From an uncultured Bdellovibrionales bacterium (GTDB lineage: Bacteria; Patescibacteriota; Minisyncoccia; Moranbacterales; UBA1568), in the NCBI GenBank assembly GCA_964530135.1, contig CAZGXN010000001.1, positions 68,110 to 132,109 on the forward strand: a stretch of 64,000 bases of DNA, written 5' to 3'. Shown here piece by piece: positions 44,756 through 56,890 of the stretch. The notes beneath the pieces were generated by a model. The model searched no databases and was not told where the DNA came from. It was given only the letters and a program-made list of their open reading frames with translations. Positions within the stretch are counted from its first letter, which is position 1. Each line of letters begins with the position of its first letter. Made by a program: the position numbers and the translations under genes.

Positions 44756-45160
44756 TTACCAAGCCTGACAAATATATTCCCCTCCGAGGTGGCGCTTGTG
44801 AGCCTCAAGTCCAGTCATAAGGCCCTGCGATGTCGAAATAATTGAGATACCGAAACCATTTTTTACCTTGATGATCTCGTTTTTCTTTACATACACGCGA
44901 CGCCCCTCTTTACTGATACGATCAATTTCCTGAATGACCGGCTCGCGCTTCGTAAGGGAGATTTGACGATACTTCAGAGTGATCTCAATCTCTTTTCGGA
45001 CACCCTCTTCAATCACGGTGATATCACCGACAAAGCCCTCGCGTTTGAGGATCTCGGCGATGGCACACTTCATTCGAGAAGCTGGAACACGCACACTGCC
45101 GTGGCCGGCGCGCTGAGCATTCCTGATTCGAGTGAGCATTTCTGCTATTGGGTCTAACAT
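44756..45160 (-). CDS. rpsH: 30S ribosomal protein S8
   Basis: MLDPIAEMLTRIRNA... Confidence 0.92.
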   Translation of the reverse strand: MLDPIAEMLTRIRNAQRAGHGSVRVPASRMKCAIAEILKREGFVGDITVIEEGVRKEIEITLKYRQISLTKREPVIQEIDRISKEGRRVYVKKNEIIKVKNGFGISIISTSQGLMTGLEAHKRHLGGEYICQAW

Positions 45161-45385: not shown

Positions 45386-45949
45386 TTAGCGTGATTCTTC
45401 TGATGCCTCGGTTTGGAGTGGGAGACCGATGGCGCGGAACAAGCATTCGCCAGCGGCTTTGTCTTTCGCGGTCGTAACAATCGTAACCTGGAAGCTAAAT
45501 ACCGTCTGGACTTTTTCTGGAATGATTTCTGGAAACACCATATGCTCTTTGAGACCGATATTGCAGTTGCCATAGGTATCGACCGAACGCAGTGTAACCC
45601 CCTGAAAGTCACGCACACGCGGGAGAGCCACATGGATGAGCCGGTCGAGAAAGTCCAGCATACGCCTGCCTCGCAATGTAACACGCATCCCAACCTCGAG
45701 CTCTTCACGGATCTTAAATCCGGCGATGGCTTTACGTGCCTTGGTCGCGACGACTTTCTGACCAGTGATCATTTCAAGCGCCGTCCGAATTTCTTCGATC
45801 CGGTTATTCTCCTTGAGGAATTTCCCCACGCCAACATTCACAACCACTCGGTCGAGCTTGGGGAGCGCGTTCGGATTCTCCGTTTTCAGGAGTTTCTTCA
45901 ATGCCGGAAGAGCCTTGGCTTCGTAATTTTTCTTGGTGAGGGATGACAT
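45386..45949 (-). CDS. rplE: 50S ribosomal protein L5
   Basis: L5 family sequence. Confidence 0.92.
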
Positions 45950-46941: not shown

Positions 46942-47139
46942 TTATTCGTTCTTCATACCAGCTTCACGCTCCAGAGTCATGAGACGTGCGATATCACGCC
47001 TGGTCTTCCGGTGCTCACTGTGCTGCTTTGAAGCGCGCGTCGCGAGATCAAAGCGTAGCCCCCGCAATCGATCACGCAACTCCAAAAGAGCCTTTTCTCG
47101 CTCACCCCCTGTTTTTTCCCGCCATTCTTTCGCTTTCAT
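46942..47139 (-). CDS. rpmC: 50S ribosomal protein L29
   Basis: [25 protein letters not shown]... The track ORF has 7 extra N-terminal codons, reaching 47160. Confidence 0.85.
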   Translation of the reverse strand: MKAKEWREKTGGEREKALLELRDRLRGLRFDLATRASKQHSEHRKTRRDIARLMTLEREAGMKNE

Positions 47140-47143
47140 ACGC

Positions 47144-47560
47144 TTATTCCTTGACGACAAATCGGCTTTTTACAGACAGTTTATGGGATGCAAGCCGCAT
47201 TGCCTCCGCCGCCGTCGCTTTCGGAACACCATCGAGTTCAAACAACATCCGGCCGGCCGAAACCTTGGCAGCAAAATGGTCTGGTGTCCCCTTACCTTTA
47301 CCCATTGGGACCTGCTCACCCTTTTTGGTGATAGGTGTATCTGGAAAAATACGAATCCAGACTTTGCCACCGCGCGCGATGAATCGAGTCATAGCCCGAC
47401 GGGCCGCTTCGATCTGGCGGGCTGAAATGATGCCCCCCTCGGTCGCCTTCAGTCCAAAGGCACCAAAGCTGATCTTGTCGCCACGCGACGCAATAGTACC
47501 GACGGGATTGTATCCACGCTGGACTTTACGGTGCTTTACTTTTCGGGGCATGAGATTCAT
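47144..47560 (-). CDS. rplP: 50S ribosomal protein L16
   Basis: MNLMPRKVKHRKVQRG... Confidence 0.93.
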   Translation of the reverse strand: MNLMPRKVKHRKVQRGYNPVGTIASRGDKISFGAFGLKATEGGIISARQIEAARRAMTRFIARGGKVWIRIFPDTPITKKGEQVPMGKGKGTPDHFAAKVSAGRMLFELDGVPKATAAEAMRLASHKLSVKSRFVVKE

Positions 47561-50880: not shown

Positions 50881-51480
50881 TTACTGAGCGCTTCTGATCT
50901 CGACAATCCGACCGGTAACACCCGGAACGGCCCCACGGACACCAAGAATCCCTTTCTCAGCATCAACGAAATCAACGATGAGATTCTTTACAGTAAAACG
51001 ATCGGCGCCCATGCGACCAGCCATACGCCGACCCTTGATAACATGCTCTGGGAAAGTGGCCCCGATGGAACCCGGCTTGCGCAAATCATGCTTGCCACCA
51101 TGACTCGCCCGACCGCCAGCAAAGCCATGCCGCTTCACAACACCCTGAAAACCTTTGGCTTTGGTAATGCCCGAAACATGAACCTTGTCGCCAATCGCAA
51201 ACTGGGCCACCGTTACCGTCGATGCGAGCACCAATGTCTCGAGAGTTTTCGTGCCATCTTCCTGACTAGCATTATGCCGATCGAGACGAAACTCACGTGC
51301 CACTACCGACTTTTTCGTCTTGGGGTGTGCGAGTTGAACCGCAACATAGCCGTCCTTTTCAGTCGTTCGGTGAAGAGAAACTGTATTGGGTTCACACTCA
51401 ATAAGCGTTACATTCAAAGCACCCTTCGTCTCATCGAAGAGTGTTGTCATACCAAGTTTTTTTCCCAAAAGACACTTCAT
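50881..51480 (-). CDS. rplC: 50S ribosomal protein L3
   Basis: MKCLLGKKLGMTTLFDETKG... Confidence 0.93.
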   Translation of the reverse strand: MKCLLGKKLGMTTLFDETKGALNVTLIECEPNTVSLHRTTEKDGYVAVQLAHPKTKKSVVAREFRLDRHNASQEDGTKTLETLVLASTVTVAQFAIGDKVHVSGITKAKGFQGVVKRHGFAGGRASHGGKHDLRKPGSIGATFPEHVIKGRRMAGRMGADRFTVKNLIVDFVDAEKGILGVRGAVPGVTGRIVEIRSAQ

Positions 51481-51521
51481 ATCTATTCGTACTTTAACTT
51501 TCTGATTTCAACAAAAAAACT

Positions 51522-51560
51522 GGGTCAGCGTCCTGCGTGCCAGTTTTTTTCTGGCTCGCT
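51522..51560. terminator. Terminator/attenuator-like element: A7 - weak stem - T7, between rpsJ and rplC
   Basis: acaaaaaaaCTGGgtcagcgtcctgcgtgCCAGttttttt. The stem is only 4-5 bp, but the symmetric A/T runs are striking. Confidence 0.35.
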
Positions 51561-51627
51561 TAGTATCCTTTCTTCGACACACATTCCGGTAGGAAGAAGG
51601 GACTTGAACGAGTATGCTCTTTGTATG

Positions 51628-51744
51628 ATTCCTTGGTTCGAGGACAATTCACGGCGCATACTCGAGAAGTGGGAGATATACCTCTCGGAGTACGATATGG
51701 GACACTCGTGACCACAGACATGAAGTGTTCCGAACCAAGGAATC
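51628..51744 (-). ncRNA. Approx. 117-nt imperfect long hairpin (nested inverted repeats) immediately downstream of the rpsJ stop; candidate cis-regulatory RNA structure
   Basis: Outer arms gattccttggttcg (51628-51640) and cgaaccaaggaatc (51731-51744). Inner arms catactcgaga and tctcggagtacg. Confidence 0.4.
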
Positions 51745-52073
51745 TACATTTTAATTTCGATATCCACACCCGCTGGCAAATCGAGATTCGTGAGATTTTC
51801 GATAGTTTTCGCGTTGGGATTCAGGATGTCGATGAGACGCTTGTGGACCCGCATCTCATACTGATCGCGCGAGTTCTTATGGACGAAGGTCGAGCGATTG
51901 ACCGTCACCTTGTGAATCTCGGTTGGGAGCGGGACGGGGCCTGTGATCTCAGCACCGGTACGCTCAGCCGTTTCGACAATCTTTCGAGCTGACTGGTCGA
52001 TGACCTTGTGGTCATAGGCCTTGATCTTGATTCGAACCCGCGTCGCTACTTCTTCTTTTTTCTTGATAGCCAT
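51744..52073 (-). CDS. rpsJ: 30S ribosomal protein S10
   Basis: S10 family sequence. Confidence 0.93.
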
Positions 52074-52150
52074 GATTGTGAATGAGTTCTTTTGAGAGAA
52101 CAGTTACCCCGCTTTTCGCGAAAGGCGGGGCTCAATTCTATCAAAATAAT

Positions 52151-53344
<1,194 letters not shown>

Positions 53345-53483
53345 ACTGTTGACTGACACCCTGATCCGTCTTTGACGAATTTTCGGTGCCCACCTTAAGT
53401 GAATAATTTATTACGAAAAATTTTCATTTTCCTGTTCCGTCCTTACCAACAGACAAAAACGGCTCAGGAAAGCGTCAATCAGG

Positions 53484-54787: not shown

Positions 54788-56890
54788 TTATTCCTTCGCG
54801 GTCGTACCTGCCTTGGCTCCCATAATCTCTTCGGCTACATTACGCGGCACTTCCGCATAGTGTGAGAATTCCATGGAGTAACTAGCACGGCCCTGACTCA
54901 TCGAACGCATCTGGGTCGCATAACCAAACATACTGGCAAGTGGAACCTCGGCTGTCACTTCCTTCACCCGTGCATTGCCTTCGCCACGGTCCGTCATCTC
55001 CTTGATGATGCCACGCTTGGCGTTGAGATCACCGACGATATCGCCCATGAAGCTTTCCGGCATGATGACGGAAACTTTCATGATCGGCTCAAGGATGATC
55101 GGTTTGGCGCGACGCATCGCTTCCTTGAAGGCGAGCGAGCCCGCAATCTTGAAGGCGGCTTCTGATGAGTCGACATCGTGGAAGGATCCATCATACACCG
55201 TTGCTTTCACATCCACGACGGGATAACCAGCAAGGACACCAGTATTCGTCGCTTCTTCGATACCTTTGTTGATCGGTTTGATGAATTCTTGTGGAATGAC
55301 ACCACCCTTGGTCTCGTCGAAGAATTCATAACCTTTGCCCTGCTCATTCGGCTCAAGACGGATCCAACAATGACCATACTGACCACGACCACCCGACTGA
55401 CGGACATACTTGCCTTCAGCCTGCGCCATCTCGCGAATCGTTTCACGATAGGCGACCTGCGGACGACCGACATTCACTTCGACTTTGAATTCACGGCGCA
55501 TACGGTCGACAATGATATCGAGGTGAAGTTCGCCCATACCAGAGAGAATTGTCTGACCACTGTCTTCGTCTGTATGGACACGGAAGGTTGGATCTTCTTC
55601 GGAAAGTTTCTTCAGGGCGACACCCATCTTTTCTTGATCGGCTTTGGTCTTTGGTTCAACGGCAATATCGATGACTGGTTCCGGAAAAACGATATTTTCC
55701 AAAATAATTGGCGCTTCCGGATCGCAAAGCGTATCGCCAGTCATCGTTACTTTCATACCGACGAGCGCGCCAATATCACCCGCAGTCAAATCTTCAATTT
55801 CCTCGCGATGATTGGCGTGCATCCGGACGATACGGCCAACACGCTCTTTTTCATTTTTGGTAGAGTTTAAAACATACGATCCAGCCTTCACCGTGCCAGA
55901 ATAAACACGGAAAAATGTCAGTTGGCCAACAAAAGGGTCGGTCGCCACTTTGAACGCCAGCGCCGAAAATTTTTCATTGTCGTCCGTCTTACGAATGACA
56001 TCCTGTTCAGTCTTGACATCAATGCCAGTAACGGGGGGGATATCGATAGGTGATGGGAGGTAGTCAACGACAGCATCCAGGACGAGCTGCACACCCTTAT
56101 TCCGCAGAGCGGTGCCCGTCATAACCGGATGAAGACGAACCTCGATCGTTGCCTTACGCAACGCTGCCTTGAGCTCTTCAACGGAAATTTCTTCACCCGC
56201 CAAAAACTTCTCGGTCAATGCATCATCACTCTCAGCAATTTTCTCGACCATCTTCTCGCGCCACTCTTTAGCCTTTTCAAGGTATTCGGCCGGAATTTCG
56301 CTCTCGATGATAATCTCGCCCATATCACCGTCAAAGGTGTAGGCTTTCATCTTCATGAGATCGATGAGGCCATAGAAGTCTCCACGCAAACCCAAAGGAT
56401 ACTGGATGGCGACCGCGTTCGGCGTGAGACGATTCCAAATAGAAGAGAGGGCGTCTTCAAAGACCGCGCCTTCCTTGTCGATCTTGTTAATAAAGCACAT
56501 GCGCGGCACCTTGTATTTCTCTGCCTGACGCCAAACGGTTTCAGATTGCGGCTCGACACCCTCCTTACCATCAAACACGACAACGCCTCCGTCAAGGACG
56601 CGCAGCGAGCGCTCTACCTCAACCGTAAAGTCCACATGCCCAGGGGTATCGATGATATTGATGTGGTGATCTTTCCAATAACAAGTCGTTGCAGCCGAAG
56701 TAATCGTAATACCGCGCTCGCGTTCCTGCTCCATCCAATCCATAGTCGCCTCACCCTCATGCACCTCGCCAATCTTGTGGGTGATACCCGTGTAGAACAA
56801 GATGCGCTCGGTTGTCGTTGTTTTTCCGGCATCGATATGCGCGATAATACCGATATTGCGATACTTTTCAATGGCGATTTTGCGGGGCAT
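54788..56890 (-). CDS. fusA: Elongation factor G
   Basis: [15 protein letters not shown]... Confidence 0.95.

Follow-up and report, generated by a model that had tools for sequence, protein, structure and literature searches.

A likely S8-sensing leader and a separate accessory hairpin in the rpsJ-rplC spacer of a Moranbacteria ribosomal protein cluster

The window analyzed in this work is a stretch of 64,000 nucleotides (64 kb; positions 68,110 to 132,109 of contig CAZGXN010000001.1) that carries on its minus strand a ribosomal protein gene cluster, in which rpsJ, the gene for S10, is separated from rplC, the gene for L3, by a spacer of 263 nucleotides (nt) (51481-51743). We consider it likely that this spacer harbors two distinct elements, that is, an S8-sensing ribosomal protein leader acting as a transcription attenuator of the S10-spc cluster and a separate accessory hairpin (P0). 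The leader (51513-51614, minus strand), delimited by covariation and by the covariance model R1, would combine a mimic of the S8 site of 16S rRNA with an antiterminator/terminator platform and, judging from the sequence of its core, most likely senses free S8. A conserved structure, the identity of its core to the S8 site, two mutually exclusive pairings, a U-tract and the presence of the S8 gene (rpsH) in the downstream cluster are the features that can be observed directly.

The conserved leader and its S8-site core

In a preliminary description of the window it was supposed that the spacer contains a cis-regulatory structure controlling the read-through from rpsJ into rplC-rplD-rplW-rplB, and this general idea was borne out by the comparison with related loci: the spacer holds a conserved, structured and terminator-containing leader placed where such a control could be exerted. 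The relatives, retrieved through their L3 sequences from a species-level genome collection and labelled here with L-numbers (e.g., L022), are almost all assigned to Candidatus Moraniibacteriota/Moranbacteria, that is, to Patescibacteria of the candidate phyla radiation, and a protein search seeded with the most divergent L3 (L039) returned further Moranbacteria only. Their spacers exhibit a common motif, which consists of CUNGUUNAAGUCC, a variable hairpin, GGAUACUNANCNAGCCAG, a second variable hairpin, CUGGC, a short loop, CCAG and a U-tract. The model R1, built from 41 spacers (alignment A1), matches the window at 51514-51614 (63.2 bits, E = 5e-12) and nowhere else in the 64 kb. Exactly one match per locus was found in 80 of the 82 sources, and one per genome in 78 of the 80 species representatives, each time in the rpsJ-rplC spacer just upstream of rplC; the two remaining sources are a contig with 44 nt of upstream sequence and L039, whose match is weak (E = 0.043) and whose core is a variant one. 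All the 18 relatives that were additionally fetched are matched as well, and no match was obtained with a control set made up of 603 kb of unrelated metagenome contigs and of the E. coli S10-spc region. Thus, the leader occurs across the sampled phylum and is not confined to the lineage of the window, as the preliminary description had proposed for its regulatory RNA. The Rfam scan suggested there gave no match for the spacer: none of the 4227 families matched the window at gathering thresholds, the spacer remained without a match when the limit was relaxed to E <= 10, and seven related loci were negative too.

The structure is supported by covariation. In the alignment of the 80 sequences 93.2% of the cells are paired, and compensatory changes are present in 11 of the 16 pairs; none of 500 shuffles matches the observed values, and controls in which the structure was slid along the alignment show 29-42% of paired cells. 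The lower helix, P1, is formed by a 5' strand CUCGUU (51607-51612, minus strand) that pairs with 51555-51560, and shows compensatory changes in four of its six pairs, with 97% of the cells paired. In many relatives it starts 1-10 nt past the rpsJ stop codon. The apical part of the upper helix, P2 (51568-51600, minus strand), is variable in length and sequence, ranging in the relatives from about 10 to more than 80 nt with a stem that covaries. An extra GC-rich hairpin of about 40 nt is found in the P2 of L022 (2330-2475), L026 and L077 (e.g., CGGCCCGCCC...GGGCATGG), and its presence in a few species indicates that the apical helix of the S8 site tolerates large insertions.

Between P1 and P2 lies the part of the leader that identifies it. 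Its 5' half, C-A-A-G-U-C (51601-51606, minus strand), corresponds to U594, A595, A596, G597, U598 and C599 of E. coli 16S rRNA, and its 3' half, G-A-U-A-C-U-A (51561-51567, minus strand), to G639, A640, U641, A642, C643, U644 and G645, with leader position 9/141 standing for U594-G645. The AAGUC/GAUACU core and the 16S segments A595-C599/G639-U644 have the same sequence, the same strand order and helices flanking them on both sides; the correspondence requires neither insertions nor deletions, and holds at 11 of 11 positions. The E. coli rRNA operon contains a single GAUACU, which is located in 16S rRNA (639-644) opposite the AAGUC of 595-599; there is none in 23S rRNA. According to the published structural work, the primary S8 site consists of seven loop nucleotides, A595, A596 and G597 on one side and U641, A642, C643 and U644 on the other, which form the triples (G597-C643)-U641 and A595-(A596-U644) and leave the invariant A642 bulged; this core is flanked by the pairs U598-A640 and C599-G639 and by regular helices, of which the distal one is free to vary (PMC4176348).

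The conservation of the leader fits this picture. Columns 10-12 and 137-140, which represent the seven loop nucleotides, read A, A, G and U, A, C, U in 72-80 of the 80 sequences; in particular, A10 is kept in 72 of them, A11, G12, U13 and C14 in 79-80, GAUAC in all 80 and U140 in 79. The flanking pairs U13-A136 and C14-G135 are formed in 80 of 80 sequences, and both the six base pairs of P1 and the continuation into P2 covary. The sole departure from the core, in L060, is a G at U140 that is paired with C11, which gives a C-G pair at the position of 596-644; the same covariation has been reported for Thermus 16S rRNA (PMC4176348). In the divergent leader of L039 (Candidatus Elulimicrobium sp., 2376-2489) the core reads GAAACU instead of GAUACU, and GAAACU is the variant seen in the E. 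coli spc operator.

The assignment of the S8 site is based on this base-by-base comparison with E. coli 16S rRNA. When R1 was run against the E. coli rrn operon it did not recover helix 21, because the model also requires the 3' platform described below. A minimal model of the S8 site (R3), derived from trimmed leader sites capped with GAAA, missed both helix 21 and the spc operator, which is not a valid negative, since we suspect a technical reason: apical or closing segments of 34-60 nt would have to fit a tetraloop.

The terminator platform and the proposed feedback by S8

Downstream of the core the leader carries a predicted intrinsic terminator, that is, the hairpin CUGG-CACG-CAG(GACG)CUG-AC-CCAG (51520-51543, minus strand), whose stem is weak and interrupted, followed by a tract of seven U (51513-51519, minus strand). 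The A7-stem-U7 element of the preliminary description is indeed present, with arms of 11 nt that are 100% complementary and separated by 16 nt, the A7 run lying at 51544-51550 (minus strand). The two halves of that element fared differently in the relatives: the A7 run, which may be the loop of the antiterminator or an A-tract lengthening the terminator stem against the U7, is a variable loop (A8 in one strain) that is not conserved, whereas the U-tract and the stem preceding it are. Indeed, a run of at least four U, mostly six or more, follows directly 3' of the stem in nearly all the 80 sequences, and five of the five modelled pairs of the terminator stem covary across the family.

The 5' arm of this hairpin, CUGGCACGC (51535-51543), is common to the terminator and to an alternative helix. 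The 3' strand of P1, AGCGAG (51555-51560), and the adjacent CCAG (S1) form together the segment GCGAGCCAG (51551-51560, minus strand), which would also serve as the 5' strand of an antiterminator; in the window the resulting duplex, GCG.GCCAG/CUGGC.CGC, has a predicted energy of -14.3 kcal/mol. In each of the 80 sequences the P1 3' strand contributes bases to the best duplex with the terminator 5' arm, and in 58 of them it contributes at least four. When the P1 3' strand of each sequence was paired with the eight nt beyond CUGGC, cognate combinations were more stable than permuted ones (-2.59 vs -1.70 +/- 0.18 kcal/mol), and none of 1000 permutations was as low. With the terminator 3' arm withheld P1 is present in the minimum-energy fold of 15 of the 80 sequences, and in that of 61 at full length, where the terminator is formed in 46; the mean energy of the antiterminator and of the full-length state is the same, -30.4 kcal/mol each. 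One strand is thus common to two mutually exclusive conserved helices, and in these modelled folds the shared strand and the balanced energies are the signature of a balanced antiterminator/terminator switch.

The gene content downstream of the leader is that expected for an autogenous control. rplC (50881-51480, minus strand) is the first gene 3' of the leader, and is followed by the genes for L4, L23, L2, S19, L22, S3, L16, S17, L14, L24, L5, S14, S8, L6, L18 and S5, all on the minus strand and, from rplC to the S5 gene, with gaps of 0-29 nt. The common strand and these short gaps suggest that the genes from rplC to rpsH are co-transcribed. rpsH (44756-45160, minus strand; Pfam PF00410, E = 1.7e-44) lies 6.3 kb downstream of the leader, so that the gene for the proposed binder belongs to the cluster that is putatively controlled. 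The S8 of the window retains the RNA-binding motifs RVYVK, ISTSQGLMT and GGEYIC, including the conserved Y, S-T-S and GGE (motifs as in PMC4176348).

On the basis of these elements the following feedback can be proposed. P1, the internal loop and P2 would mimic the docking site of S8 on 16S helix 21, and the P1 3' strand with CCAG could alternatively pair with CUGGCACGC, the 5' arm of the weak hairpin preceding the U7. As long as S8 is scarce, being consumed by 16S rRNA, the antiterminator would form during transcription, and RNA polymerase would proceed from tuf-rpsJ into rplC and the whole S10-spc cluster, rpsH included. An S8 in excess over free 16S rRNA would instead clamp P1 and keep its 3' strand out of the antiterminator; CUGGCACGC would be freed, the terminator would form, and transcription would halt at 51513-51519, before rplC. 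rpsJ, which is located upstream of the leader, would escape the control by S8.

Some points weigh against this proposal. The terminator hairpin is weak (-5.9 kcal/mol in the window, which is also the family median), and a simple terminator scanner made no call for the window terminator. The short helix between S1 and its partner S2 shows little covariation of its own, with 77% of the cells paired; this is expected for a strand serving two partners, but is no proof of it. The permutation and shuffle controls of the leader leave the phylogenetic relatedness in. The window contains no rRNA, so that for Moraniibacteriota the identity of the site is based on E. coli 16S rRNA and on the published universality of the core, and we infer both the binding of S8 and the termination at the leader. 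Finally, S8 could act via translation or mRNA decay rather than via termination.

This last possibility can be formulated as an alternative in which the S8 site acts after transcription, through decay or through a block of rplC translation, while the hairpin and the U-tract represent a constitutive partial terminator or a stabilizer. The weakness of the hairpin would speak in its favor, as would the fact that S8 is known solely as a translational repressor (PMC3616713, PMC10931766). We regard this scenario as improbable. The site precedes the rplC start by about 80-130 nt, a distance too long for occlusion, and the P1 3' strand would have no need to be complementary to the terminator 5' arm, as is observed in 80 of 80 sequences, and to covary with it. 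The preliminary description had thought of a different ligand, L4 or L3, and of the mimicry of a 23S rRNA site. The position of the leader directly upstream of rplC-rplD and the combination of a weak hairpin with a U-tract, which resembles the factor-assisted attenuator reportedly described by Zengel and Lindahl for the E. coli S10 leader (cited in PMC3616713), would be in agreement with this idea. The principle of rRNA mimicry on which it was based has held; its target has not, since the invariant core fits the S8 site of 16S helix 21 at 11 of 11 positions and with the right topology, GAUACU is nowhere present in E. coli 23S rRNA, and no Rfam match was obtained to any ribosomal protein leader, including L4-Archaeoglobi (PMC7247131). 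An attenuator responding to L4 or L3 appears to us very improbable indeed.

An elaboration of the S8 attenuator, to which we assign a low probability, would couple it to translation: in terminating on rpsJ, ribosomes would mask the 5' strand of the S8 site and compete with free S8 for the helix. If this were true, about 20 downstream ribosomal protein genes would be gated by ribosome traffic as well as by the excess of S8, and P0, with its fixed position at the stop codon and its gains and losses among lineages, would retune the coupling as an insulator or as a module for a second input.

The comparison of the putative S8 attenuator with known systems reveals both similarities and differences. 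The closest one by protein and by mimicry is the S8 operator of the E. coli spc operon. Like the leader, it is an mRNA mimic of helix 21 with an AAGUC strand, two base triples and a bulged A, and it belongs to an operon that encodes S8, which allows a feedback by the free protein. The crystal structure of this operator was reportedly determined by Merianos et al. in 2004, and reviews of it are available (PMC3616713, PMC10931766). Unlike the leader, it is a site of translational repression that lacks a terminator and overlaps with the start codon of rplE, a gene in the middle of the spc operon; moreover, it shows a circular permutation with respect to helix 21, GAAACU being its 5' strand and AAGUC its 3' one, and has A in place of U641. 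The leader, which is found in a phylum of the candidate phyla radiation, maintains the rRNA topology and the exact rRNA core; it precedes rplC at the head of a fused S10-spc cluster, and would be coupled to an antiterminator and a terminator. No R1 match exists near rplE (45386-45949 in the window), and the strand order is permuted between the two elements; hence, as far as sequence comparison goes, the leader is not a member of the spc operator family, though it probably binds the same protein. The E. coli operator has been reported solely in Gammaproteobacteria (PMC3616713), and according to a 2024 review the regulation of spc outside this class is unknown (PMC10931766).

The E. coli S10 leader is likewise an attenuator with a weak hairpin and a U-tract that gates rplC-rplD-rplW-rplB onward and responds to a ribosomal protein of the operon. 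It differs in lying upstream of rpsJ, in responding to L4 with the assistance of NusA, and in having no S8-like core; the leader described here lies downstream of rpsJ, so that S10/NusE would escape its control. An assignment to the L4-responsive type, defined by a position upstream of rpsJ and by the hairpins HD and HE, is contradicted by the position of the leader and by its 16S core. The best mechanistic analogue is the L20 leader of the B. subtilis infC-rpmI-rplT operon (PMC1865079), in which a ribosomal protein bound to an rRNA-mimicking helix shifts the choice between antiterminator and terminator. The L20 system differs from the present leader in protein, mimicked site (23S rRNA), operon and lineage, and the two leaders are unrelated in sequence. 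In the literature we found no ribosomal protein leader from Patescibacteria or Moranbacteria, no S8 attenuator and no description of the leader presented here.

The accessory hairpin P0

The spacer opens with P0 (51622-51748, minus strand; 118-127 nt), which extends through the S10 stop codon, UAG (51746-51744), whose G is the first base of the hairpin arm. The long hairpin that the preliminary description had placed right after this codon is present as described: the outer arms (51627-51640 and 51731-51744) are 14 nt long, 100% complementary and 90 nt apart, the inner arms pair, and a UGUA/UACA extension crosses the stop codon. The mid-stem, GUUCGG-N-ACA-Y-UUC/GAA-Y-UGU-M-C-UCGAAC, is irregular and conserved, with a bulged U and two 1x1 mismatches, and the apical part branches into two small stems. 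The comparison with shuffled sequences, proposed as a check, gave a clear outcome, since P0 alone folds at -51.9 kcal/mol vs -30.1 +/- 3.5 for 200 dinucleotide shuffles (z = -6.26, 0 of 200 as good); for the whole spacer z = -4.6.

The claim that this hairpin of about 117 nt is the regulatory element of the spacer is contradicted by its distribution. P0 is identical in four assemblies, and is missing in the seven closest species representatives (L3 83-90% identical), in which about 110 nt are absent and a tiny GGC-loop-GCC hairpin is present instead, while the remaining 150 nt or so of the spacer align well. Two more close relatives (L3 88% identical) also lack it, for a total of nine. Of the species examined about 90% have no P0, and it is likewise missing from the closest relatives that were sampled for each carrier. 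The conservation of the structure in relatives is thus partial: P0 is absent in the nine closest genomes and carries compensatory changes where it exists, whereas the approximately 100 nt downstream of it are conserved. The impression of an unusually long spacer has to be corrected in a similar way. In 78 relatives the rpsJ-rplC spacer measures 95-367 nt (148-161 nt in the nearest ones), so that a long spacer is a property of the phylum, and the unusual part of that of the window is the extra stretch of about 110 nt brought by P0. Most lineages live without the hairpin, which is thus dispensable.

Homologues of P0 were nonetheless found at the same site in four or five other species, namely L022, L141/L210/L211, L217-219 and, in a shorter form, L041. 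Searches with blastn and nhmmer against all loci retrieved L022 only; a metagenome pattern scan for the P0 termini yielded, among the matches listed, 119 chance matches and a single real one (L141, which corresponds to Moranbacteria RIFCSPHIGHO2_12_FULL_54_9), and the copies of L217-219 were found through look-ups of L3 relatives. In L209 (about 1255-1350), a public assembly of an L141-type organism, a run of N is located exactly at the position of P0. A second covariance model (R2, alignment A3), built from four sequences, that is, the P0 of the window and its homologues, additionally finds the shorter relative in L041 and, weakly, one in L045; it retrieves no other copy, either from the rest of the window or from the related loci (about 0.5 Mb), and scores the sense strand far above the antisense one.

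The stem starts 0-1 nt past the S10 stop codon in all the carriers, whereas the distance to P1 varies from 6 to 21 nt. Compensatory changes affect 12 of the 43 pairs, and the outer stem has been rewritten around the invariant irregular mid-stem. The identity between the P0 of the window and the others is 55-59%, and that among L022, L217 and L210 is 80-84%; the corresponding values for the S10 nucleotide sequences are 77-79% and 80-84%. The compensatory changes and a divergence that tracks the flanking genes point to an old, vertically inherited and selected structure that has been repeatedly lost, and not to a recent spread. Our leading guess is that P0 would provide a stable double-stranded 3' structure for rpsJ, working as an mRNA stabilizer or as an RNase III site, and it may also insulate the S8 site from the ribosomes terminating on rpsJ. 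A processing site or a small structured RNA, which had been raised for the spacer, is a candidate reading for this hairpin only, and not for the leader.

ERIC elements, Correia-type repeats and the RNase III sites of phage T7 also form hairpins, about 60-150 nt in length, whose lower stems are long and nearly perfect; they closely follow stop codons in transcribed spacers and are patchy among relatives. P0 differs from them in being, in the data available, single-copy and site-specific, in lacking a target duplication and in diverging along with the host genes. It might nevertheless be asked whether P0 is a miniature inverted-repeat mobile element of the ERIC/Correia type, which landed in a permissive spacer and is functionless in itself. 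The length of the hairpin, terminal arms that are nearly perfect and a patchy distribution in closely related species would fit, and the spacers of the relatives have frequently received other palindromic or repetitive inserts. We consider such an origin unlikely, given that, with about 6% of a typical genome covered, no second copy was found in the 64-kb window or in the 0.5 Mb or so of Moraniibacteriota loci, that the P0 arm is not repeated within the window beyond chance, that all the homologues occupy one site 0-1 nt past the S10 stop, and that no target-site duplication is visible. The divergence following that of the flanking genes, the compensatory changes of the arms around an invariant mid-stem and the score of the sense strand, far above that of the antisense, are also hard to reconcile with a recently spreading element.

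It is somewhat less doubtful, and still only a tentative possibility, that P0 is a second regulatory or processing module, i.e., a site for S10/NusE or for another ribosomal protein, or an RNase III site parting the tuf-rpsJ mRNA from the leader. An invariant irregular helix between covarying stems, a position fixed at the stop codon despite a variable distance to P1, and a conservation equal to that of the S10 coding sequence among L022, L217 and L210 would be in agreement with it. Against it, the conserved core of P0 gave nothing convincing when compared with E. coli 16S, 23S and 5S rRNA, no Rfam match was found, and its absence in most species implies that it cannot be essential.

Other inserts were observed in the same spacers. 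About 20 of the 80 species carry another long near-perfect hairpin at the position of P0. Repeats rich in TACGAAT and ATTTGTA are present in L213-L215, L050, L055, L056, L058, L063, L079, L038 and L042, where they flank the leader on one side or on both, arranged as long hairpins or as direct repeats; L213-L215 show the duplication of a unit of about 35 nt on both sides, and the spacer seems to be a hot spot for inserts. Four distant relatives, L052 (about 2320-2500), L053, L066 and L080, share a conserved insert of about 170 nt (CCCAGCACCAATTCC...GAATTGGTGCGGGATGCTCA), which is located past the leader terminator, reaches the L3 start codon and has no Rfam match. As for the interior of P0 (51647-51664), it shares an exact match of 16 nt, GTATGCGCCGTGAATT, with the fusA coding region (55488-55503; blastn E = 0.011), and the overlapping CGAGUAUGC is a perfect 9-nt complement of GCAUACUCG (51609-51626), which enters the P1 5' strand. 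These matches may be due to chance, or the interior may have been patched from local sequence, or it may be able to pair with P1.

Gene context and significance

The genes upstream of the spacer are rpsJ (coding sequence 51744-52073, minus strand) and tuf (52151-53359, minus strand), both taken from the list of open reading frames (ORFs). The S10 of the window is 94-97% identical to that of Moraniibacteriota metagenome-assembled genomes, and the same protein is encoded on contigs of four other samples, of which three have an identical spacer and one carries A8 in place of A7; this recurrence in independent assemblies shows that the structure is not an assembly artefact. In the cluster, a short ORF between the genes for L16 and S17 (46942-47160) occupies the place expected for rpmC (L29), for which it is a positional candidate. 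Two small ORFs crossing the spacer (44 and 69 amino acids) were rejected, the sequence they span being missing in the nearest relatives. A simple promoter/terminator scan of the spacer gave no call. No AGGAGG-like Shine-Dalgarno sequence is present 5' of rplC, either in the window (51481-51512) or at the equivalent positions of the relatives, in many of which a short ACGA(A/G)-like motif recurs 5-10 nt before the rplC ATG.

A further structure is located in the spacer between tuf and rpsJ (52074-52150, minus strand), which contains a conserved GC-rich hairpin flanked by UUGAUrGAAyUGAG and GACUGUUCUCUCAAAAGAACUCAUUCACAAUC-AUG. Across the window and L001-L008 its stem has been fully rewritten by compensatory changes (CCCCGC/GCGGGG, CCCAGUACCUC/GAGGUGCUGGG and GUCUCGGGAA/UUCCCGAGAC), and no U-tract follows it; it could be a separate leader for rpsJ.

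The autoregulation by S8 is a textbook case, of which, to our knowledge, the sole known example is the operator that acts on translation at rplE in Gammaproteobacteria. The autogenous control of ribosomal protein genes by rRNA mimicry is itself well known, and an S8 leader equipped with a terminator is apparently undescribed. The leader would represent an independent solution, in which the same protein and the same rRNA mimicry are wired to a terminator at the head of a fused S10-spc cluster. P0 adds a smaller puzzle to this scenario, that is, a structure which is conserved yet dispensable and which is fixed to a stop codon. The leader would constitute a compact RNA-protein pair of about 100 nt and a candidate RNA family for annotation, and it would reveal how the control of ribosomal proteins may be organized in the genomes of the candidate phyla radiation, that is, in uncultured bacteria with reduced genomes.

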